Shown here in pieces: positions 50,591 to 61,362 of a stretch of DNA of 64,000 nucleotides; the first letter of the stretch is position 1; each line of letters opens with the position of its first letter. Source of the stretch: an uncultured Gallionella sp. Its GTDB lineage: Bacteria > Pseudomonadota > Gammaproteobacteria > Burkholderiales > Gallionellaceae. The notes below the pieces were generated by a model, which did not search any database, was not told the origin of the DNA, and saw nothing but the letters and a program-made list of their open reading frames with translations. The stretch is taken from contig CAYPIG010000001.1 in the NCBI GenBank assembly GCA_964410705.1, positions 25,362 to 89,361 of the forward strand, given 5' to 3'. Made by a program: the position numbers and the translations under genes.

Positions 50591-52585
50591 TTAGCCCAGT
50601 TTCGACAGTTGCTGAGTCAAAAATGAACTGGTGGTATTCATGTGCTGTAACATCTTGTCCAGCGCGGTAAACTGCGAGCGATAGCGCGCTTCGGTGCCTA
50701 TCAGGCGTTGTTGCAGCACCGCGGTTCTGGCCGCCACGGCTTTGATCGAGTTGTTGATCTCTGTAGTGCTGGCGCTGAGCGACCCATCGTTAGCCAGTAC
50801 GGAAGTTGCAAAATTCTTCAGCGTATAGGCATAGCCCTGAGTGTAACTGATAGTTCCTCGCGTGCCCAGTGCTCCACCGTTGACCATCACGGATAAACCC
50901 TGTGAGTCGCCCGTTCCAGAAGTGAGCAACTGGCCGCTTCCTGTTGCACCCGCGCCGTTGATGGTGCCTGCGACATCTACCCCGGTCGTAGGTGTGGCTG
51001 TGCCGAAAATATTGGTCCGACCATTGCCACCTGTAACGATAACGCTGGAAGTTGCCCCGTAGCTGTTCGAAGTCACGCTGATCGCACCGCCGACCACGGA
51101 AGCCGAAACCGAGATCCCCGCGCCCGATAAAGCGGTCACGCTGTTGATCTTGGACTGAATTTCGCTGGCCAGTTCCTGAGCCGAGGTATAGGTCTTTGAA
51201 GTCAGGGTTATATTCGCATTCACGCCGTTGATGTTCATGTTCAGCGTGTCGTTTGTGCCGTCTATCGTCAGATTGGGTGCGGCCGTGCCGGTTTCATTGC
51301 CCTGAGTCGCCAGTTGCGTGACCGTCAGGGCGTAGTTGCCAGGTTTAGTGGCGGCGCTGGTCGAGTTGTAGGTCACAAGACTGTCGGAGGCGGTGCCTGT
51401 CGCGGCGAACAGCCCAGCGATGCCGCTATAGTTGTTCTGCATCGCGGTGGCGAGCTTTGCGCTGTCTACCGCCAGGGTGCCATCTTTCTGGAAAGACACG
51501 CCTATCTGTGTCAGGCTCGTCAACGATCCTGTGCCTGGTGTATTTAAAATGCTGCGCAGACTCGATTGCAAATTGCGCACGGTGGCATCCCCCTGCAAGA
51601 TGGCGCCTTTTTTGTTGGTCGCATCGTAGGAAGAAAGGTCTTTCAGGGTCTTGTTCAGTGAATTGAAGGAGGTCACGAAATCGTTGACCGATTTGGTGAC
51701 CGATGCAGTGTCCTGTGCCACGTTCAGTGTGATCGGAGTGGTGGTGACTTTGCTTAAAGACAGCGTAACTCCCGGGATGACATCAGATATGCTGTTGGAA
51801 TTCTTGGTAACCGAGATGCCGTTGACTTTCAGGCTGGCGCTGAGCGCGCTGACTGATTCGGTCAGATTCTGCCCTGCAGGCCCTGCCGTGGGGTCATTCG
51901 CCAGCAAGGCTGCAACGCTTGCATCCCCGGTGGCGGAAATCTTCATGCTGTTGGCCGCCCCCATGTTTGCAGAGCTTAAAACCAGACGGTAGGGGGTTGC
52001 GCTGCCATCGTTGATGATGCTGGCAGTCACGCCGATATTGGCGGCGTTGATCGCATCTCTCATGCCCTGCAAGCTGTTGTTGGTGCTGTCTATGGTGACG
52101 GTCTTGATGCCATTGCCACCCGAGACAAAGGTGGCGCCCGCCGCATATTTGCCGTTGGTCGCCGTGCCGGTGATGGTGCCGAAATCGAAGGACAGCGTGG
52201 TAGACGCGCCTGTGCCTATCGCGGTGGCAACGCCGGTCTGTCCTGCGGCAACCAGTTTTTGCGCCTGTGCCAGATTGCTAACTTCGATCGAGTAGCTGCC
52301 GGGTACGGCGCTGGTCAGCGCGCTGGCCGACAATATCGTGCCGTCAGAAGGGGTGGCAGTCACGGCCTGAAAGCTGCTGGCGCGGCTCAGATTAGAAACG
52401 CTGGTCTGAAAGCTCGCCATCGCGCCCTGTATGGTGCCAAAGGCGGTCAGCTTGGCCTGATAGCTGGCAGTCTTGGTCGCAAGTTTGGTGATCGGGATCT
52501 GTTCTGCCGTCATCAGCTGAGTGACCAGCGCGTTGACATCCAGTCCGCTGGTGCTCGTTGCCGAAGTTGCGCTCGTCGTTGCCAT
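50591..52585 (-). CDS. fliD: Filament cap protein FliD
   Basis: GLDVNALVTQLM, NLAQAQK, NSISDVIPGVT, YRSQFTALD. Confidence 0.96.
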   Translation of the reverse strand: MATTSATSATSTSGLDVNALVTQLMTAEQIPITKLATKTASYQAKLTAFGTIQGAMASFQTSVSNLSRASSFQAVTATPSDGTILSASALTSAVPGSYSIEVSNLAQAQKLVAAGQTGVATAIGTGASTTLSFDFGTITGTATNGKYAAGATFVSGGNGIKTVTIDSTNNSLQGMRDAINAANIGVTASIINDGSATPYRLVLSSANMGAANSMKISATGDASVAALLANDPTAGPAGQNLTESVSALSASLKVNGISVTKNSNSISDVIPGVTLSLSKVTTTPITLNVAQDTASVTKSVNDFVTSFNSLNKTLKDLSSYDATNKKGAILQGDATVRNLQSSLRSILNTPGTGSLTSLTQIGVSFQKDGTLAVDSAKLATAMQNNYSGIAGLFAATGTASDSLVTYNSTSAATKPGNYALTVTQLATQGNETGTAAPNLTIDGTNDTLNMNINGVNANITLTSKTYTSAQELASEIQSKINSVTALSGAGISVSASVVGGAISVTSNSYGATSSVIVTGGNGRTNIFGTATPTTGVDVAGTINGAGATGSGQLLTSGTGDSQGLSVMVNGGALGTRGTISYTQGYAYTLKNFATSVLANDGSLSASTTEINNSIKAVAARTAVLQQRLIGTEARYRSQFTALDKMLQHMNTTSSFLTQQLSKLG

Positions 52586-52595
52586 GATGATACTC

Positions 52596-53012
52596 CTACG
52601 CCTGCTGTTTGATCAGCATGCCTTGCGTGCTTGGTACCTGCGCTTTCGAAATCGATGCCTGCTGCAGCTGTTCCTGCATTAGTCCGATGGCTTTTGAAAT
52701 TGCCAGCATCTGTTCCGAGGGGAACTGGCCGATCACATCCCCCGTGACGGTGTCCATCAGTTTGACCACGGTCTGATGAGTGTCGCTGTCCACGCTGAAT
52801 GCAAGATTCTTGTTGGATACCTGCATCGCCTTGTTGGTGTTTTCCACCGCGTTCTTCAGCTGAACTTCTGTAGGCTTGGGATCAGTTCTGTTTTCGGCAG
52901 CCGGTTTGATTTCAGCCTTGCTCTCGGCGACAGGGGCGCTCGTCGTAGGCTCACTAACCGTTCTGAGCGGCTCATAGCTTGGTGCTGTACTATTGACGTT
53001 CTGGATAAACAT
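52596..53012 (-). CDS. flaG: Flagellar protein FlaG
   Basis: LAFSVD, TGDVIGQFPSEQML, GMLI. ATG53012 follows a purine-rich SD. Confidence 0.92.
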   Translation of the reverse strand: MFIQNVNSTAPSYEPLRTVSEPTTSAPVAESKAEIKPAAENRTDPKPTEVQLKNAVENTNKAMQVSNKNLAFSVDSDTHQTVVKLMDTVTGDVIGQFPSEQMLAISKAIGLMQEQLQQASISKAQVPSTQGMLIKQQA

Positions 53013-53127
53013 TTTTCTCTCCTTTCGTTCCAGAGAATCCGCCAGCATGGGCGCATTGCTCAGAGGGCTAAGGTCAACGGGCATGGCGGGTACTTGTAAT
53101 ACCTGCCATGCCCGCTGGTTAACCTCA

Positions 53128-53151
53128 GCCGGATTCTACAGAGAATCCGGC
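53128..53151 (-). terminator. Hairpin between fliC and flaG (terminator/attenuator-like, no clear U-tract)
   Basis: GCCGGATTCT-ACAG-AGAATCCGGC perfect 10-bp stem. Confidence 0.55.
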
Positions 53152-53173
53152 CAAGGTTGTTTGCTTTTAAGAC

Positions 53174-54622
53174 TTAACGCAACAGGGTCATGACCTGGTT
53201 AGGCAGCTGGTTCGCCTGTGCCAGCATCGCAGTACCGGCCTGCTGCAGGATTTGTGCACGGGACAGCGAAGCGGTCTCTGCGGCAAAGTCTGTATCCTGA
53301 ATCCGGCTGCGCGATGCAGTCAGGTTTTCAGTAGTGGTCTGCAGGCTGGATACCACCGATGAGAAACGGTTCTGGTAAGCACCGAGTGAAGCGCGTGATG
53401 AGTTTACCGTAGCCAGTGCTGCATCGATGGTGGACAGTGCGGAAGACGCACCTGCCGCCGTGGTCAGGTTCAGAGAAGAAAGCCCCGCACCTGCGGTTAC
53501 GGTGGCGGCAGTAGAACCCGCTGCCGCACCTATGATAGCTGCAGTCGCCTGTGTACCACCCAGCGTGATGCCGTTTGCGCTGGTAGAAGACAGGCTGATG
53601 GTACCGCCGGTAGTCGCTGCAGTCGCGCCAGTTGCGCCAGTTGTAGTGACGGCGATGTCGATGTTGCGGCCGTCTGCGGCTGTCAGGGTGTATCCGCCGC
53701 CGGTACCGGCTGCCAGGGTGGCAACTACGCCGGTTTGTGCGCTGACCGCATTGAAGGCGGCGGCAATTTCACTGGCCGAAGTCTGTGCCACAGCGGTTGT
53801 CGTTGCACCTGAAACGGTTACGCCGTTGACGGTCAGGCTGAATGCGCCTGCAACGGTGCCCGCTGTATTGGCCACGGTGGTCGCTCCAACCGATGCGGTC
53901 ACGCCGGACTGGCCGGAAATCGCATTGATCGCATTGGCTTTGGCAATCGCGCTGCCTGTTGCGCCGACTGTGGATACGCCGTCGGCAACGGATGCGCCTA
54001 CGTTAAAACCATTGATGGACAGACCGCCTGCGGTCAGTGCAACGGCGTTAGAGGTAATTGCGACACCTGCAACGGTTGTGCTGTAACCTGAAGCGGAACC
54101 CACGCCCAGCGAGCCGGCTTTCGCACTGGCAATGGAGGCGATGGTGATCTGGTCGTTTGCGGTTGCATTGGCACCAACCTGGAAGGTTTGTGCGCTGAAA
54201 GTGCCGTCGAGCAGTTTCACGCCGTTAAACTGAGAACTGGAAGCTACGCGGTCGATTTCAGTGACCAGAGACGCGGCTTCTGCGTTAAGTGCGGCGCGGT
54301 CGGATGCGCTGTTGGTCGCATTGGATGCCTGTACGGCCAGATCGCGGATACGCTGCAAGTTGGTGCTGATCTGGTTCAAATCGCCTTCGGCCGTCTGAGC
54401 CAGAGAGATACCATCGTTGGCGTTGCGTGCAGCCTGAGTCGAGCCTGAAATTTGAGAAGACATACGGCTGGAAATCGCCATCCCCGCTGCATCATCCTTT
54501 GCACTGTTGATGCGCAGGCCTGAGGACAGGCGCTGCAACGCGGTTTGCTGCGCAGCTTGCGAGGTGTTCAGATTGCGCTGTGCATTCAGGGAGGCTAAGT
54601 TGGTATTGATGAATGAGGGCAT
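53174..54622 (-). CDS. fliC: Flagellin
   Basis: INTNLASLNAQRNL, RLSSGLRINSAKDDAAG, SRIQDTDFAAETA, QAGTAMLAQAN. Confidence 0.98.
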   Translation of the reverse strand: MPSFINTNLASLNAQRNLNTSQAAQQTALQRLSSGLRINSAKDDAAGMAISSRMSSQISGSTQAARNANDGISLAQTAEGDLNQISTNLQRIRDLAVQASNATNSASDRAALNAEAASLVTEIDRVASSSQFNGVKLLDGTFSAQTFQVGANATANDQITIASIASAKAGSLGVGSASGYSTTVAGVAITSNAVALTAGGLSINGFNVGASVADGVSTVGATGSAIAKANAINAISGQSGVTASVGATTVANTAGTVAGAFSLTVNGVTVSGATTTAVAQTSASEIAAAFNAVSAQTGVVATLAAGTGGGYTLTAADGRNIDIAVTTTGATGATAATTGGTISLSSTSANGITLGGTQATAAIIGAAAGSTAATVTAGAGLSSLNLTTAAGASSALSTIDAALATVNSSRASLGAYQNRFSSVVSSLQTTTENLTASRSRIQDTDFAAETASLSRAQILQQAGTAMLAQANQLPNQVMTLLR

Positions 54623-54715
54623 TTTAATTCTCCTTAAGTAGTATCCGGGTTCGGCTATTGCCGTTTACTTTGGTTTGCCTCTTGCTGAAGGCTTAATTAA
54701 CCGCCGTTATTCCAG

Positions 54716-54742
54716 TTATCGGTGCGGGTTAAAAATACTTTA
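54716..54742 (-). promoter_or_regulatory. sigma28 (FliA) promoter of fliC
   Basis: Minus strand TAAA-N15-ACCGATAA (7/8 match to the -10 consensus). Confidence 0.88.
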
Positions 54743-54774
54743 GGGCTATTTTTAAAATTTGTTTGAGAAGACCT

Positions 54775-55124
54775 GTCATTGCTAGGCCCGTAAGAGTTGC
54801 GGCAATCCACCCAGTCATTGCGAGGCCCGACAGGGGCGCGGTAATCCACCCAGTCATTGCGATAACCAGCCACTTGGCAGCTTGCTGCCTTAGTGGATTG
54901 GCTAGTAGTTTCATCAGGCTCGCTAGAGCCGCGGCAATCCAGAAAGCCTTATATTGATCTGGATTGCTTCACCTCTATGGTGGTTCGCAAAGACAAAGGC
55001 CTTCATTTATCTGGATTGCTTCACCGCTAATAGCGGCTCGCAAAGACCAAGGCCTTCATTCAGCTGGATTGCTTTCCGCCACGGAACTTGAATCCTTGCG
55101 GCTAAAGGCCCGGCTCGCAAAGAC
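54775..55124. repeat. Palindromic repeat cluster 1: three forward units (54775, 54814, 54853) and three reverse units (54959, 55011, 55064)
   Basis: Consensus GTC(A/T)TTGCGA-stem-loop-GCAATCCA(G/C), about 36 nt. Confidence 0.92.
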
Positions 55125-55144
55125 GATGCAATCCGCTATGAAAC

Positions 55145-55516
55145 TCAGGCCAATTGAATGATCTGGTTAAGCCTCTCGCACACCTGGATAAAAAAGACAT
55201 CGTCCAGTCTGCGTAGCGGGTGAGAGGTTGCGCCGCGCAATCGCCAGTCAAACGATTTGGGCTGGTGGCACAGAACATAGCTGGTCTTTCCAGTCTTGCG
55301 TCCCGTTGCATTTCCAGCCGCGACAGCGAACGGATTGTCAGCATTGTATTCTGCGGTCGTCATGGGCAATCCGATGACCAGCGAGGTTTTATCATTAAAG
55401 GCGCGCGGGGAAAGCACCAGAAAGGGATGTACATCGCGCATTTCGCATCCGATCTGCGGATTGCAGTCAATCCAGATGACATCCTGTCGATCGGGTGCAC
55501 GGGCGGTTGTTACCAT
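55145..55516 (-). CDS. mazF: PemK/MazF-family toxin
   Basis: VIWIDCNPQIGCE..PFLVLSP..FNDKTSLVIGLPMTT, DQ-like CHQPKSFDW..R. Confidence 0.88.
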   Translation of the reverse strand: MVTTARAPDRQDVIWIDCNPQIGCEMRDVHPFLVLSPRAFNDKTSLVIGLPMTTAEYNADNPFAVAAGNATGRKTGKTSYVLCHQPKSFDWRLRGATSHPLRRLDDVFFIQVCERLNQIIQLA

Positions 55517-55764
55517 TTTTCAGCCCCCAGGCTTTCGGGAGTCTGCATCGCTTCGCCGCCGTGCCGTGCCGGATCAAAAGTCGCCAGACGTTGTTCCAGC
55601 GTTAATGGTATCTCCTGTACCGGCGCTATGGTGATCAGGCCTTCTTCAACCGAAATGCGCACGCGCTGATGTACGTGCAGATGGGCTTCCCGCGCGATGG
55701 CGGCAGGAAGACGAACGCCGAGATTGTTCCCCCATTGTTTGATGTCCAGCATCACTTCCGTCAT
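55510..55764 (-). CDS. mazE: AbrB/MazE-family antitoxin
   Basis: IKQWGNNLGVRLPAAIA, TLEQRL. ATG55764 follows GGAG; the gene overlaps mazF. Confidence 0.88.
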   Translation of the reverse strand: MTEVMLDIKQWGNNLGVRLPAAIAREAHLHVHQRVRISVEEGLITIAPVQEIPLTLEQRLATFDPARHGGEAMQTPESLGAEKW

Positions 55765-55793
55765 GTTCCTACTCCGGCAAATGTCTAAACGGG

Positions 55794-55822
55794 AGTATAA
55801 ACATCGATATCCTATAAAGCAA
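55794..55822 (-). promoter_or_regulatory. sigma70 promoter of mazEF
   Basis: TTGCTT-N17-TATACT on the minus strand. Confidence 0.7.
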
Positions 55823-55833
55823 TAAATAAAGGT

Positions 55834-55981
55834 GTCATTGCGATAACCAGCCACTAGGCAGCTTGCTGCCTTAGTGGATTGGCTAGTAGTTTCATCAGGC
55901 CCGACAGGGCTGTGGCAATCTGGCCCGTCATTTATCTGGATTGCTTCCCGTCACGGATCTTTGATCCTCGCGGCGAAAGAC
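55834..55981. repeat. Palindromic repeat cluster 2: forward unit with 54-bp insert plus a reverse variant unit
   Basis: GTCATTGCGA-insert-GGCCCGACAGGGCTGTGGCAATC ... CTGGATTGCTTCC...GAAAGAC. Confidence 0.9.
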
Positions 55982-55998
55982 CCTGCCATGCTGGGCGA

Positions 55999-56027
55999 TT
56001 GATAAGCATAACCCGTTGGTGTAGTAT
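55999..56027 (+). promoter_or_regulatory. Candidate sigma70 promoter for the DUF1640-like gene (near-leaderless)
   Basis: TTGATA-N17-TAGTAT, ending 9 nt before ATG56037. Confidence 0.5.
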
Positions 56028-56036
56028 TCTGGCACC

Positions 56037-56276
56037 ATGAGCACCATTACTTTCGACACACAAGAACTTGTTAGAGAACTGCGAACCTCCGGTCTACCCC
56101 AAGAACAGGCGGAGGCTGTGGTGCGTACCATCGTCAAGTCTCATGAAGGGCTGGCAACCAAGGCCGACATCGAACGCTTTGAGATAAAGGTCGACGCTCG
56201 CTTTGACAAGTTGAGCTGGATGATGGGCATACTCATTGCCCTGTCTGTCGCAAACTTCGCCAAGCAATATTTTTAA
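56037..56276 (+). CDS. Small DUF1640/CCDC90-like coiled-coil membrane protein
   Basis: FDTQELVRELRTSGLPQEQAEAVV, LATKADI, C-terminal TM helix. Confidence 0.78.
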   Translation: MSTITFDTQELVRELRTSGLPQEQAEAVVRTIVKSHEGLATKADIERFEIKVDARFDKLSWMMGILIALSVANFAKQYF

Positions 56277-56283
56277 GTTCCCG

Positions 56284-56449
56284 CTTTGATCCTCGCGGCT
56301 AAAGGCGTTGTCATTGCGAGGCTCGATAGGGCCGCGGCAATCCAGAAAGTCTTACATTCAGCTGGATTGCTTCACCGCTATAGCGGTTCGCAAAGACAAA
56401 GGCCTTCATTTATCTGGATTGCTTCACCGCAATAGCGGTTCGCAAAGAC
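56284..56449. repeat. Palindromic repeat cluster 3: partial variant, forward unit 56310, reverse units 56362 and 56414
   Basis: Same consensus as cluster 1. Confidence 0.92.
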
Positions 56450-56751
56450 GATGGAGTCGCGCCAACAATGCCGGGGTATAAGTCGTTCCAGTCCCGATTT
56501 ACAGACTCGATCAAATGCAGTTTTTTTGCCCGAGAACCGGCCTTAATCTGCTTTTCGCGCGCAATTGCGGCCTCCATCGTGTCTGACATTTCGAAGTAAA
56601 CCAGCATGTGTACGCCATAACGGCTGGTAAAACCCTGAATCTGGTCGCTCTTATGTTCCCATACCCGCTTGGTCAAATTTGAGGTTACGCCGACGTAAAG
56701 CGTTCCGTTGCGCCTGCTTGCCAGAATATAGACTGCCGGTTGCTTTTCCAT
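56410..56751 (-). CDS. Stand-alone GIY-YIG nuclease family protein
   Basis: AVYILAS...LYVGVTSNLTKRVWEH, LVYFE, AIAREKQIK. GAGGAG SD. Confidence 0.92.
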   Translation of the reverse strand: MEKQPAVYILASRRNGTLYVGVTSNLTKRVWEHKSDQIQGFTSRYGVHMLVYFEMSDTMEAAIAREKQIKAGSRAKKLHLIESVNRDWNDLYPGIVGATPSSLRTAIAVKQSR

Positions 56752-56789
56752 TTCAGTCTCCTCATCAAGGTACGCAAAAGATGCAACGC

Positions 56790-57020
56790 GTCATTGCGAT
56801 AACCAGCCACTTGGCAGCTTGCTGCCTTAGTGGATTGGCTAGTAGTTTCATCAGGCCCGACAGGGCCGCGGCAATCCAGAAAGTCTTATATTTATCTGGA
56901 TTGCTTCCCGCTACGGTTCTTCGATCCTCGCTGTCATTGCGAGGCTCGATAGAGCCGCGGCAATCCAGAAGGCCTTATATTCAGCTGGATTGCTTCACCG
57001 CTATGTCGGTTCGCAAAGAC
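56790..57020. repeat. Palindromic repeat cluster 4: forward unit with insert 56790, reverse variant 56896, forward 56933, reverse 56985
   Basis: Same consensus; the outer ends read CGTC. Confidence 0.92.
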
Positions 57021-57033
57021 GAGTGTTATTTGC

Positions 57034-58836
57034 CTATTTCGCGATGCAGACGCGGTTTTTGCCGGTGGTCTTGGCCTGATACATGGCCTTATCGGCGCGG
57101 GCGATGACTTCCTGTTGCGCCTCGTTTTCACCGAGCTGTGCAACCCCCGCGCTGAAGGTGACTAGCACGCGGTCGTTTTCGTGCAGGAAAAATTGCCGGG
57201 TGAGTTCGCGTTGCAGGCGCTCCACGGTAGCTGCCGCTTCTTCCAGCGCGACATCGGGCAAGATGATGATGAACTCTTCGCCGCCGTAGCGTGCCACCGA
57301 ATCGGAAGGGCGCAGCGCCTCCTTGATGACGTTGCACAGGTGAACCAGCGCCTTGTCGCCGACCTGATGCCCCATGGTATCGTTGAGACGTTTGAAGTTA
57401 TCGATATCGAGCAGGGCGACGCACAGCGGGTTGTGGCTGCGGTCGACGCGTTTTGCCTCGCGGTCGAAGGCCGCATCCAGACCCCGCCTGTTCAGCGCTC
57501 CGGTCAACTGGTCCTGGTGGACCATTTCGCTTACTTCGGACAGCTCCTTTTCCAGCGTGGAGATTCTGGCTTCGGCGATTTCAACCTGATGGCGGGATTC
57601 GAGCAGTTCCTGATGTGAGCGCTGCGCGCTGACCTGTATCACGCGGGTGTCCTGCATGATGTCTTCGAGCAGATGCCCCAGATCATTGAGATTGTTGGTG
57701 CTGGCGATCTTCTGGCTGTAGCCTTCGATTTTCTGGTGGTAGTCGCCTGTGCTCACCGTGATGGTGCCCAGCCGGTCGATGAAAGTCGTCATCAGGTTTT
57801 TGAGGGTCGATTTGGCATCGACCAGACTCTTCTTGAGCAGGCCCTGTTTGATGATTGCTTCGCGCAGGCTGCGTTCGGCATCGGCTATCACCAGTTTGTC
57901 CATCGGTTTGCTGATGATTTCATGCAGCGCATTGATTTGTCCGTGCAGCCATTCTTCGTCCTCGACCATCTCGCCGACATTCTCGACCAGCAGCCGCAGC
58001 AGTCGCACCAGTCCCTCCTGTACCTTGGATTTGTCGCCTGCATGCAGCTCGACCTTGATCCAGAATTGCCGCAGCTGGGAGCCTAGTTCTGCGATCTGTT
58101 CCTGGGTTTTGATCTGGCGCAGCTTTGCGCTGATCGCCTGCGCTTCAGCGGTTAACTCGGGCTGTCCGTTGATCGCGCTCTCCAGCGTCTTTGCCAGCAG
58201 GTCGGCCAGTTTTGCGAGCATTTCATCGTCGGCGGGAGCCGCCGCTTTGAGTGTTTCGGGCAGTTCGGCCTGATCAGAAGCCTTGGCAGGCTCCGAAACT
58301 TTTGCGGGTTCCGAAGCCTGGGCGGGCTCTGAGGCCTCGACCAGACTCTCCGTTGTGGTCGACTCGGACCAGGATTTGATCAGATTGCCGATTTTTTCAA
58401 ACAACACATCGGGGTTGGAGGAAAAACGCGCCAGCACGGTTTCCAGTCCCTCTTTCTTGCGCGAAGTGGTCAGACCCTTGTGAGGCAAGTCGATCTGGCG
58501 CAGCAGGTCGCGGATCAATGCAGACCAGGTCTGTTCAACGGCGCCCGCGACCGGGCGCTTGGGCAGCACCTTTTCGATTTCCTTGAAGCACTGCTCCCAC
58601 TTTTCATCGGACAGCATTTTTTTCAAAGCAAGCCCGGTGCCGGCGGTCTTGTCCGTCTGCAGCAGATGCTCCGCGATATTTTTCAATACTTTCTCGGCGC
58701 CGCTGATCGGAGCTGCCGGACTGCCGTTGATCTCGGTGTAGATTTTCGCGTAGTTGTCCGGCGTGGGCGGGAGCCTGCGCTGTGCCAGCATTTTCAGGGT
58801 TTCACGTGCGATTTCGGACGGATTCTGATTATTCAT
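57034..58836 (-). CDS. Cytoplasmic coiled-coil diguanylate cyclase
   Basis: DQLTGALNRR, DIDNFKRLNDTMGHQVGD, RPSD I-site, ARYGGEEF; no TM segments. Confidence 0.92.
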   Translation of the reverse strand: MNNQNPSEIARETLKMLAQRRLPPTPDNYAKIYTEINGSPAAPISGAEKVLKNIAEHLLQTDKTAGTGLALKKMLSDEKWEQCFKEIEKVLPKRPVAGAVEQTWSALIRDLLRQIDLPHKGLTTSRKKEGLETVLARFSSNPDVLFEKIGNLIKSWSESTTTESLVEASEPAQASEPAKVSEPAKASDQAELPETLKAAAPADDEMLAKLADLLAKTLESAINGQPELTAEAQAISAKLRQIKTQEQIAELGSQLRQFWIKVELHAGDKSKVQEGLVRLLRLLVENVGEMVEDEEWLHGQINALHEIISKPMDKLVIADAERSLREAIIKQGLLKKSLVDAKSTLKNLMTTFIDRLGTITVSTGDYHQKIEGYSQKIASTNNLNDLGHLLEDIMQDTRVIQVSAQRSHQELLESRHQVEIAEARISTLEKELSEVSEMVHQDQLTGALNRRGLDAAFDREAKRVDRSHNPLCVALLDIDNFKRLNDTMGHQVGDKALVHLCNVIKEALRPSDSVARYGGEEFIIILPDVALEEAAATVERLQRELTRQFFLHENDRVLVTFSAGVAQLGENEAQQEVIARADKAMYQAKTTGKNRVCIAK

Positions 58837-58868
58837 GGTTCTATCTTTAGAGTGAGTAGATTATCGGT

Positions 58869-59510
58869 TCAGCCCTGAACTTCGATCAGGTGATGGGTGA
58901 TGGCATAGTGTATCGCTTCCGCGTTGTTGGTAAAGCCCATTTTTGCCAGCATACGGCTGCGATAGACGCTGACGGTTTTGGGGCTGAGCGCCATGATCAC
59001 GGAGATGTCGTTCAGCGATTTTCCGGAAGCCATCAGGCAAAGGGTCTGATACTCGCGGTTGGAGAGCTTCTGATGCATCAGTTCCTGTGACTCGCCGATC
59101 AGATTGTTCAGCAGTTGTTCCGCCAGCACTTCGCTGATGTATTTTTTCCCGCTGATTACCTGGCGTATCGCCTTGATCAGCACGTCCGAGGCGCTTTGTT
59201 TGTTGATATAGCCCATAGCACCGGCTTTGAGCGCGCGCACCCCGTACTGTTCTTCCGGATACATGCTAAGCACGATGATCTTGAGCTCAGACTGCTCGGT
59301 CTTGAATTGCTTGAGCACGTCTATGCCGTGTTTGTCGGGCAGGTTGATATCCAGCAGCATCAGGTCGTAGTGTGCCTCGCGCAGCATGGACACCGCCTGA
59401 GTGCCGCTGGCCGCCTCACCGGTGATTTTCAGGTCAGGGCTGTCTTCGAGCAGCTGTTTCAAACCTTTACGGATTAAGGCGTGATCGTCAACGACGAGAA
59501 TATGGATCAT
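58869..59510 (-). CDS. NarL/FixJ-family response regulator (REC + LuxR HTH)
   Basis: VVDDH, LLDINLP (phospho-Asp), GYINK, LSNRE, SPKTVSVYRSR. Confidence 0.93.
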   Translation of the reverse strand: MIHILVVDDHALIRKGLKQLLEDSPDLKITGEAASGTQAVSMLREAHYDLMLLDINLPDKHGIDVLKQFKTEQSELKIIVLSMYPEEQYGVRALKAGAMGYINKQSASDVLIKAIRQVISGKKYISEVLAEQLLNNLIGESQELMHQKLSNREYQTLCLMASGKSLNDISVIMALSPKTVSVYRSRMLAKMGFTNNAEAIHYAITHHLIEVQG

Positions 59511-59667
59511 GGTGGTCAATTTGTCTGTGAGCGGCAGATTTTACTGCAAAATAATTTTTGCCAGTCATCTTAATTGCGGTTTTTGGCCATGCCAGCTACA
59601 TTACGCGTTTGCAGAGCGGTTCACTGTGCGCTGCATATCACGCAGGTTCTGGAGTTTTTTTATTGAA

Positions 59668-61362
59668 ATGAATGAGATGGACATGTTAGGCAAGTATCGC
59701 ATCATCGGCGAGCTGGGCCGGGGTGCGATGGGCGTGGTCTATGAGGCGTTCGACACGCTGATTGAACGCACGGTTGCCATCAAGACTATCCTCAAGTCTG
59801 CCGTGCACGGCAATGATGCGGAGGAGATATTCAGCCGGTTCCGCTCCGAGGCGCGTGCCGCAGGCCGCCTCACCCATCCCAAGATCATTTCCATCTACGA
59901 GTACGGCGAGAACGATGAGATGGCCTACATCGTGATGGAACTGGTGCGCGGCATGGAGCTGAGCGACTATTTCGACTGCGGCAAGAAGCTGTCGCTGGCC
60001 GAGGGTTTGCGCATCGTGATGCAGTTGCTCGATGCGCTCGACTATCTGCATGCGCACGGCATCGTGCACCGCGATATCAAGCCTGCCAATCTGATGATAA
60101 CGGAAGACGGCCAGCTCAAGATCGCCGATTTCGGCATCGCCAAGATCGATTCCTCCGGCCATACTCAGGTCGGCGTGGTGCTGGGCACCCCAACCTATAT
60201 GGCGCCGGAGCAGTTCATGGGGCATGAGGTGGATCAGCGGGCGGATCTGTATTCGGCCGGTGTCATCCTCTATCTGATGCTCACCGGCGAGCGTCCCTTC
60301 GTCGGCAGCGTCATCGCCATCATGCATCAGGCCGTACACCGCGATGCGACGCCCCCTTCTCGCATCAATTCCGATGTCACCCCCGAACTGGATGCCCTGG
60401 TGGCCCGCGCCATGGCCAAGCGTCCGGAAGACCGCTATCAGAGCGCCAAAAAGTTTTTGAAGGCGCTCAAGGCCGCAGCCCTGACGCTGCCTTCATCGGA
60501 TCATCCGGCCAGGGTCGGCTTTCGCGATGTGGCGGCCGAACCCGATGAGACGCTGGAATTGCCCCGGCGCAGTACGGGTAACTGGCGTGAGGCGGATATC
60601 GCCGCCTGGCAGAGCATTTCGGCCAGCCAGAAGCCGGAAGATTTCAGGAATTATCTGCTGGACTATCCCGAGGGCGGGTTTGCCGAGCTTGCGAAGATGC
60701 GCATAGAGGCGCTGGAAAAAGCGGCTGAGCGGGCAGCTCAGGAAGCGCTTCGTGCAAAGCAGGAGGAAAAGGCCAGGGAGGAGGCGGCGCAGGCGGCCGC
60801 GCTGGCCCGCCAGCGCGAAGAGGAGGCTGCCAAGGCGCAGCTGGCGCGAAAAATCGTCGAGCTTAGGCAGCAGGCGGAACAGGCGCGCGCTCAGGAAGCC
60901 ATCAGGCGCGAGAAAGAGGTCGAGGCTCAGTCTCAGCGGGCAAAAGAGCTGGAGCAGACCCTGTATGAACGCACCAGTAAGATCGCCGCCGTGGTCCAGG
61001 AAAGGGAGGAACGCAGCGATTCCGAACAGAGAATGAAGCGTGAGGCAAGGCGCCGCCTCGAAGAAGAGGTGTTGCGCAAGAAGCAGGGGAGGGCGCAGTT
61101 GGCTGCGGCCCGCGATGAACTGGAAAAGCTGGCTCAGGAAGAGGCGGCAGAAAAGCGGCGGCTGGCTGAGGCTGAACTGGCGGCGCGCGCAAAAGAAGCC
61201 GATGAGGCCTGGGAGCGGGCCAGAGTCGCCGAGCGCATCAGGGCCGAGGTAGAAGCAAAGGCGGCGCAGGAGAAGAAGAAAAACAGCTTCAAGCTGTTGA
61301 TGATAGGACTGTTTCTGATGCTGCTGCTGGCAGGTATCGTGTTCGGTCTGATGCCGCGCTGA
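59668..61362 (+). CDS. Hanks-type Ser/Thr protein kinase with long charged coiled-coil and C-terminal membrane anchor
   Basis: GRGAMGVVY, VAIK, HRDIKPAN, DFG, GTPTYMAPE. Start could be 59668, 59677 or 59683. Confidence 0.93.
   Translation: MNEMDMLGKYRIIGELGRGAMGVVYEAFDTLIERTVAIKTILKSAVHGNDAEEIFSRFRSEARAAGRLTHPKIISIYEYGENDEMAYIVMELVRGMELSDYFDCGKKLSLAEGLRIVMQLLDALDYLHAHGIVHRDIKPANLMITEDGQLKIADFGIAKIDSSGHTQVGVVLGTPTYMAPEQFMGHEVDQRADLYSAGVILYLMLTGERPFVGSVIAIMHQAVHRDATPPSRINSDVTPELDALVARAMAKRPEDRYQSAKKFLKALKAAALTLPSSDHPARVGFRDVAAEPDETLELPRRSTGNWREADIAAWQSISASQKPEDFRNYLLDYPEGGFAELAKMRIEALEKAAERAAQEALRAKQEEKAREEAAQAAALARQREEEAAKAQLARKIVELRQQAEQARAQEAIRREKEVEAQSQRAKELEQTLYERTSKIAAVVQEREERSDSEQRMKREARRRLEEEVLRKKQGRAQLAAARDELEKLAQEEAAEKRRLAEAELAARAKEADEAWERARVAERIRAEVEAKAAQEKKKNSFKLLMIGLFLMLLLAGIVFGLMPR

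Follow-up and report, generated by a model that had tools for sequence, protein, structure and literature searches.

A 2.25-kb block in the 64,000-nt stretch analysed here, which comes from an uncultured Gallionella sp. (assembly GCA_964410705.1, contig CAYPIG010000001.1, positions 25,362 to 89,361; "the window" below), very probably consists of an ssn gene, arrays of the hairpin repeats cognate to its GIY-YIG nuclease, and two unrelated cargo modules, together forming an Ssn/repeat system like that of Neisseria. The repeats appear to be a variant, here called TTGCGA-type, of the Ssn-related motif (SRM). The original prediction had cast the GIY-YIG protein as a repeat-associated enzyme; this is supported by the flanking of homologous genes, by co-variation and by repeat abundance, and the association has already been published (PMC11893778). 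The host is a Gallionella-like betaproteobacterium from a rock metagenome, and its assembly is 92% complete.

The reference enzyme, N. meningitidis SsnA, is 94 aa long and has GIY-YIG as its only domain (Chenal et al. 2025, Nat Commun, PMC11893778; CDD cd10448, GIY-YIG_unchar_3). It binds its hairpin repeat, NTS (CGTCATTCCCGCGMAVGCGGGAATCYRG), solely as single-stranded DNA (ssDNA) and in one orientation, and cuts a few nt upstream. The palindrome is preceded by three bases that cleavage needs and is followed directly by a C that matters most for binding; Y6, Y17 and E64 are the residues that were mutated (PMC11893778). Among the Ssn homologs analysed from reference and representative bacterial genomes, 71% were flanked by related SRM hairpins, and the authors likened the repeat-ssn-repeat layout to an insertion sequence (IS) (PMC11893778).

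The window gene (56410–56751, minus strand) matches PF01541 with E 2e-14. This is the only Pfam match of its product, over residues 6–77, leaving no extra DNA-binding domain. Its open reading frame (ORF) of 113 aa comprises a conserved core of 96 aa (56464–56751), within the ∼90–100 aa typical of the family, plus 17 codons read into the adjacent hairpin unit, the usual stop being missing. Homologs are mostly 96 aa long and cover 85% of the ORF. As a proxy for meningococcal SsnA we used the 94-aa N. gonorrhoeae ortholog (L060:1995-2276), which has Y6, Y17 and E64 and within 2 kb of which a regular expression for the NTS hairpin matches 11 times. BLASTP aligned it with the window protein over its full length without gaps, at 59% identity and E 3e-41; the published family criterion is E < 1e-10 (PMC11893778). 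Window residues Y8, Y19 and E66 align with the catalytic Y6, Y17 and E64, and are invariant in a nine-member family alignment. Other GIY-YIG proteins were much less similar: the UPF0213 structure 1zg2 gave only a weak match (E 0.003), and the product of the second GIY-YIG gene of this genome (on C34), of a separate family, showed 42% identity over 77 residues when a hand-edited copy of it was compared. Judged by these alignments, the window protein belongs to the Ssn family and is only distantly related to 1zg2 and to the C34 protein. Both flanks of the gene carry hairpin units, seven in all within 300 nt.

We counted 16 oriented repeat units between 54775 and 57020, on both strands and in four clusters, bearing out a first estimate of about 15 palindrome copies in four clusters. 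A unit starts with a GTC(A/T)TTGCGA head, continues through a variable stem-loop centre and ends in a GCAATCCAG tail, the 3' end reading G[C/T/A][G/A]GCAATCCAG in its fuller form. The ends are fixed and the centre is always self-complementary. Both the full head and the full tail are found in 12 of the 16 units. The two end ten-mers, GTCWTTGCGA and GCAATCCAG, each occur 12 times in the window and every copy is within the block, in agreement with the first observation that the remainder of the 64 kb holds no copy of the repeat.

Nine of the units are short (35–37 nt each), three are long (90 nt each), two are variants with another inner hairpin (61 and 46 nt), and two are truncated. Many form inverted doublets or follow one another in direct order, separated by a conserved 16-nt spacer. 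The leftmost cluster begins on the plus strand with two short SRM-type units, 54775–54810 (degenerate) and 54814–54849, and a long unit at 54853–54942, in which a nested hairpin element of ∼56 nt lies between GTCATTGCGA and GGCTCGCTAGAGCCGCGGCAATCCAG; three minus-strand units follow in direct order with 16-nt spacers, at 54959–54994, 55011–55047 and 55064–55124, the last being the 61-nt variant. The second cluster is an inverted doublet of a long unit (55834–55923, plus) and the 46-nt variant (55936–55981, minus). The third has a truncated variant (56277–56305, minus) and SRM units at 56310–56345 (plus), 56362–56397 (minus) and 56414–56449 (minus). The fourth has a long unit (56790–56879, plus), a truncated variant (56896–56931, minus) and SRM units at 56933–56968 (plus) and 56985–57020 (minus). 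As listed here all units are intergenic, save for 56414–56449, which is read as the tail of the ssn ORF. Segmental duplicates of 112–127 nt are found inside the block; these and the truncated units point to recombination among repeat copies.

When folded as ssDNA, a unit is predicted to pair TTGC with GCAA in an outer stem and, beyond a small internal loop, to form an inner stem of 5 bp. In the 45 TTGCGA-type units of the genome, the inner stem takes at least eight different sequences that retain pairing through compensatory changes, and a perfect inner stem of at least 5 bp is present in 47% of units, compared to 0.7% of shuffled interiors. The hairpins might conceivably act at the level of RNA or transcription, as terminators, insulators or mRNA stabilisers resembling repetitive extragenic palindromes (REPs) and bacterial interspersed mosaic elements (BIMEs), with the nuclease incidental. 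Their intergenic placement would suit such a role, as would the strong folding of doublets as one strand (-23.8 kcal/mol, z = -5) and the -35-like hexamer that a repeat head supplies upstream of mazE. We nonetheless consider it unlikely. Taken singly, the units have weak folds (z = -1 to -2), no U-tract follows them, terminator-like matches are not above chance, and no Rfam family matches. The unpaired GTC head and CCAG tail are strictly conserved in one orientation, which fits a recognition site for a protein, and the Neisseria enzyme is inactive on RNA (PMC11893778).

The ∼56-nt element nested in the long units (GATAACCAGCCACTTGGCAGCTTGCTGCCTTAGTGGATTGGCTAGTAG...; 54861–54916, 55842–55897 and 56798–56853) is itself a dispersed repeat, present also at C98:2360-2409 of this genome. 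Taken alone, it was found in most of the 21 relatives from the genus that gave a match, in 1 to >20 copies each. The relatives carrying it include genomes without ssn, and its stem shows compensatory changes. In the L006 relative it sits inverted within an NTS-type unit. It had no match in Rfam. A CUGAUGA-like stretch in the long units (minus strand) raised the possibility of a structured RNA or ribozyme, which was rejected when an Rfam scan to E 10 returned noise only.

The local repeat shares the frame of NTS, namely the GTC head, the ATT..AAT outer stem and the CCAG tail; the stem is different and longer. Laid out by its determinants, the unit reads GTC + (A/T)TTGC..GCAA(T) + CCAG. All of the functional determinants of NTS are thus kept: GTC directly 5', a hairpin palindrome, C directly 3', and a fixed orientation. 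We have filed the repeats as a structural variant of SRM on these sequence determinants, not on the published regular expression. Searches used head and tail patterns in place of that expression; one over-loose pattern gave mostly chance matches and was dropped.

Nuclease and repeat are also linked in related genomes. From 41 of them we took loci of Ssn-type homologs and of the other GIY-YIG family. Hairpins were found within a few hundred bases of all nine Ssn-type homologs (60–78% identity) and at none of the seven loci of the other family. In a wider set of named homologs from many phyla, 57 of 80 loci had hairpins, most often as a pair bracketing the gene. The repeat type followed the nuclease. 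Homologs L002–L005 (70–78% identity) had TTGCGA-type units alongside, while L006–L010 (60–67%) had GTCATTCC[C/G]..GGAATCCAG units, which matched the Neisseria NTS consensus in L006, L007 and L010. In a maximum-likelihood tree the TTGCGA-flanked nucleases formed one clade (support 94/88), and the repeat-type label changed twice on the tree, compared to 6.8 changes in shuffles, none of the 500 shuffles being as low. Relative G014 has two ssn genes, an example of the two nuclease clades.

Repeat abundance also tracked the nuclease in the genus, with a median of 46 copies in genomes with ssn and 5.5 in those without (Mann-Whitney p = 0.0003). Copies were counted with the pattern GTCWTT-N12-36-SAATCCAG, whose reversed control gave 0–1 matches. 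The gene is patchy in the genus, with pseudogenes in three genomes, and the Ssn protein tree mixes phyla. From the patchiness and the phylum-mixing tree, the repeat-ssn-repeat module is read as horizontally mobile.

Several observations weigh against our interpretation of the block. The published SRM motif, HGTCWYN(0-2)YYVSBRHN(0-5)WNVSBRGN(0-2)RNCYNB, has no match among the 16 local units, because their stem starts GCGA and is longer and bulged; matches to it in this genome are NTS-type copies alone (on C14, C16, C22, C73, C97 and C2). Recognition of the TTGCGA variant by Ssn is therefore an extrapolation, and we infer ssDNA cleavage of the variant by this protein by carrying it over from the characterised homologs. 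The 17-aa repeat-encoded tail and the lost stop might alter activity. The abundance link is not absolute, in that some genomes without ssn retain 15–30 copies (G002 has 30, G023 has 19). The two repeat-richest relatives, G020 (136 copies) and G008 (103), have only a stop-interrupted ssn pseudogene (G020:C96:6851-7129 and G008:C1:1186937-1187215), and therefore repeat maintenance does not need the enzyme.

By analogy with the enzymes of Neisseria, N. elongata, N. wadsworthii and Wolbachia, the 96-aa GIY-YIG protein would bind the repeat as a single-stranded hairpin and in one orientation only. It would read the GTC head, the stem and the C after the stem, and would cut the single strand a few nt 5' of the head. 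If it behaves as its homologs do, ssDNA carrying the repeat, whether from transformation, conjugation, replication or repair, would be fragmented, and recombination at repeat-flanked loci would be lowered or reshaped. The repeat-ssn-repeat unit would be a selfish module moving horizontally, and the repeats would collect at hotspots between genes, forming mosaic arrays that resemble the Neisseria intergenic mosaic elements (NIMEs). The genome encodes ComEC and DprA; this is weak evidence for competence, as control genomes show both families to be common.

The repeats had at first been looked for in the 64 kb only. They are absent from the remaining window, but the genome holds other copies, in total ∼45 TTGCGA-type units and ∼9 NTS-type hairpins. 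Some of the TTGCGA-type copies are scattered, and others form tandem head-to-tail intergenic arrays at C26:13490-14170 (∼15 copies), C20:25260-25732 (∼11) and C84:745-950 (∼5), all with a period of ∼43 nt, made up of a 35-nt unit and an 8-nt spacer. These arrays look superficially like CRISPRs, but their spacers are conserved and too short. The NTS-type hairpins (GTCATTCCCGCGnAnGCGGGAATCCAG, the Neisseria consensus) are at C14:3159-3276, C16:2554, C22:671, C73:4989 and 7873, C97:1256 and C2:73609. The genome is without a nuclease of the clade that accompanies the NTS subtype in relatives, and these copies may be either orphan sites or sites shared by the sole resident enzyme.

A clean case of repeat insertion came from two relatives. 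Around a Gp49-like gene, G006 and G020 differ only by a 134-bp insert that G006 carries (L101:1710-1850, compared to L103) and that consists of an inverted hairpin doublet with 13-bp terminal inverted repeats (GGAGATGCTGATT) and a TTAA duplication. Elements of this kind, miniature inverted-repeat transposable elements (MITEs) of 130–170 bp with hairpin doublets as their body and 4-bp YTAR target duplications, recur in relatives; there is a CTAG duplication in L148, and TTAG adjoins one end of L149. There are 63 copies of the terminus GGAGATGCTGATT in G020 and 25 in G006, with none of the reversed control, and an intact IS5-family element in G006 (L153) has matching termini and a CTAG duplication. 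Relic MITE termini also adjoin solo repeats in the genome studied here. The hairpins in relatives thus hitch-hike on IS5-type MITEs, a spread for which a DDE transposase is the simplest explanation. Pairs of termini 1.5–1.9 kb apart in G020 were considered as a transposase-bearing element and set aside, since they enclose ordinary genes and no transposase. Likewise, ssn is not a gene bracketed by MITE termini: one terminus is near ssn in G006, on one side, and none in this genome.

These findings could be taken to mean that the repeats spread through IS5-derived MITEs, with the DDE transposase acting in trans, together with slippage and unequal recombination, and that Ssn is a restriction-like host or selfish factor that merely targets them; the locus would then be a generic toxin-antitoxin hotspot in which repeat copies recombined with one another to give the mosaic. 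Besides the MITE copies, the matching intact element and the relic termini, this account draws on the regular 43-nt-period tandem arrays of C26, C84 and C20, on the segmental duplicates in the block, and on the persistence of repeats where ssn is absent or a pseudogene, the latter being where they are most abundant. Against it, neither the window block nor the genome arrays have MITE termini, DDE_Tnp_1 had no match in the assembly, and the co-variation of clade and subtype and the layout of one repeat on each side argue that nuclease and repeats travel together. We hold it to be possible but doubtful as a whole. It is compatible with an Ssn/repeat system as far as the action of the enzyme is concerned, and differs on repeat multiplication only. 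The MITE route accounts for some repeat spread in relatives, not for the local array.

A further expectation had been that no REP-associated tyrosine transposase (RAYT), integrase or IS transposase would be present. Neither Y1_Tnp (PF01797) nor DDE_Tnp_1 matched anywhere in this assembly, though relatives do have Y1_Tnp genes; for integrases the expectation stands in a narrower form, there being no recombinase among the ORFs of 52000–60000, which were not searched with a dedicated IntI profile.

The block occupies the interval between two conserved genes, fliC (53174–54622, minus strand) and a GGDEF diguanylate cyclase (DGC) gene (57034–58836, minus strand; PF00990, E 1e-44, and synteny). The right edge of the site is the DGC stop codon, and the left edge is a sigma-28-type fliC promoter, TAAAGTAT-N11-ACCGATAA (54716–54744, minus strand), called on the general sigma-28 consensus and conserved in relatives, the empty sites having been aligned by eye. 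We located the DGC ortholog in 27 of the 41 genus genomes and compared the downstream region in 15. In six of these the site is empty, the DGC stop being followed after ∼70–250 nt by the conserved fliC promoter, and the block sits exactly between these two landmarks. The stretch 54775–57025 is an accessory insertion in a DGC-fliC spacer of ∼70 nt or more.

That cargo here varies among relatives was confirmed by the other fillings as well as by the six empty sites. G006 has BrnT/BrnA-like and Gp49/HTH pairs with a repeat doublet, and G020 has an AAA ATPase, PIN/Phd-like, BrnTA-like and Gp49/HTH genes with one repeat. No repeats accompany the two CcdAB-like pairs of G009, the 356-aa protein of G049 or the 980-aa TPR-methyltransferase of G008. 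These identities were read by eye from ORF translations (L101, L103, L105, L107 and L110). Across the genus, the DGC-fliC interval is a hotspot where small accessory modules collect, in many cases toxin-antitoxin pairs, with repeats in some fillings only.

The original prediction had gone on to suggest that the nuclease nicks and spreads the hairpins and captures or shuffles genes, giving an integron-like array built by an enzyme that is neither HUH nor DDE. Several features have the appearance of such a process. Compared with six relatives the block is inserted DNA, and other cargo is at the site elsewhere; each cargo module stops ∼10 nt or less from a repeat unit; the truncated units found at the borders of modules (56277–56305 and 56896–56931) show repeated insertion or recombination inside repeats; the repeat-ssn-repeat layout is the one remarked on as IS-like by the Ssn authors (PMC11893778); and the assembly has no RAYT or DDE_Tnp_1 match. 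Capture or shuffling of cargo by the nuclease is however unsupported, and we judge the whole scheme very unlikely. Hotspot cargo is free of any repeat in G009, G049 and G008. In at least 11 relatives mazEF orthologs have unrelated surroundings, none with a TTGCGA-type unit, and real repeat units were found at only one of 15 loci of homologs of the DUF1640-like cargo gene. The sole repeat insertion that could be reconstructed, that of G006 relative to G020, is an IS5-type MITE, and only one side of the G006 ssn has a MITE terminus. In contigs of four rock-metagenome runs, depth was even across the block and there was no empty-site or circle junction, a weak point given that these fragmented assemblies break at repeats. 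Finally, characterised Ssn enzymes hydrolyse ssDNA only, with no joining or strand-transfer activity known (PMC11893778).

One specific form of the scheme, to which we likewise give very little weight, would have Ssn nicks at outward-facing doublet heads start single-strand excision or template switching, and so move ssn and small cassettes into hotspots. If true, this would be a GIY-YIG route of gene mobilisation distinct from those of DDE, HUH, serine and tyrosine enzymes, and the DGC-fliC site would be one of its landing pads.

Among known systems, the one that resembles the block most closely is Ssn with NTS and SRM. Shared features are the ∼95-aa single GIY-YIG domain with the same spacing of the catalytic Tyr, Tyr and Glu; oriented hairpins whose head is GTC, whose stem is ATT..AAT and whose tail is C(C/T)(A/G)G; and repeats that flank the gene on both sides and are otherwise scattered or clustered intergenically, in a patchy distribution that suggests horizontal transfer. 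The local system differs in its GCGA..GC stem with a bulge and a second, freely varying inner stem-loop, in a nuclease of a distinct clade, in the 17-aa repeat-encoded tail, and in having ∼55 repeats in the genome rather than hundreds.

In Neisseria, as is generally known and is taken up in the discussion of the Ssn paper, there are also NIMEs, which are bounded by dRS3 repeats, and minimal mobile element sites. Like these, the block is an intergenic hairpin mosaic with conserved spacers and holds small accessory genes, including a toxin-antitoxin pair, between conserved flanks, with content that varies among relatives. The Gallionella-like host and the repeat subtype are different.

The REP, BIME and REPIN families with their RAYTs are similar in that short extragenic palindromes, frequently in inverted doublets, surround a single-copy gene for a nuclease acting on ssDNA hairpins. 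Here, however, the enzyme is a GIY-YIG hydrolase and not an HUH tyrosine enzyme, so that chemistry through a covalent intermediate is not expected; the repeats have no conserved 5' GTAG; and a cognate Y1_Tnp gene (PF01797) was not found in the assembly. With IS5 MITEs the likeness is in G006 and G020, which carry inverted doublets of the same hairpins within IS5-ended elements, whereas the window block is without IS5-type termini and no DDE_Tnp_1 gene was found in the assembly. Integron cassettes have in common with the block small genes, promoter-poor or self-promoted, placed between imperfect palindromes that fold as ssDNA, and cargo rich in toxin-antitoxin pairs. Unlike an integron, the locus has no attI or Pc promoter and no integrase among the ORFs of 52000–60000 (no dedicated IntI profile search was included); its palindromes are clustered on both strands, where each integron cassette has a single attC and all attC sites share one orientation; and homologs of its cargo elsewhere are not bounded by repeats.

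The enzyme family, its association with repeats and the IS-like layout were already published, and the present case confirms the link in a Gallionella-like genus far from Neisseria. What it adds is small: a repeat subtype that the motif misses, with its own nuclease clade; MITE-borne doublets; and the description of one hotspot. That a two-tier, bulged subtype is missed by the SRM pattern means that the reported association of 71% is probably an underestimate. The pairing of a subtype with its own clade suggests that matched enzyme-site pairs could be mined clade by clade, and carriage by IS5-type MITEs is a concrete route of repeat spread independent of Ssn. The main value is in filing the locus correctly; the picture of what the system is stays unchanged.

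The gene contents given in the original prediction for the interval between fliC and the DGC, namely mazEF, a DUF1640-like gene and a GIY-YIG gene, were all borne out, the second of these at a sub-threshold score. The mazF gene is at 55145–55516 (minus strand; PF02452, E 4e-21) and mazE at 55510–55770 (minus strand; PF04014, E 1e-8); matches to the NCBIfam models of both were below cut-off. By the limits of blastn homology, the mazEF module common to relatives is ∼680–690 bp long, from ∼55134 to 55823, and ends ∼10 nt or less from repeats on each side. The exact MazF protein has no record in public assemblies. The second cargo gene (56037–56276, plus strand) encodes a 79-aa DUF1640/CCDC90-like protein with a hydrophobic C-terminus (PF07798, E 8.5e-7, at 29.4 bits against a cut-off of 33.5).

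Promoters had been proposed for both modules. Sigma-70-like sites do exist upstream of mazE and of the DUF1640-like gene, but their frequency is at chance, with three found and 2.6 expected from shuffles. The only promoter-like match upstream of mazE (55809–55838, minus strand) has as its -35-like element ATGACA, a hexamer that the neighbouring long unit provides through its head, TGTCAT.

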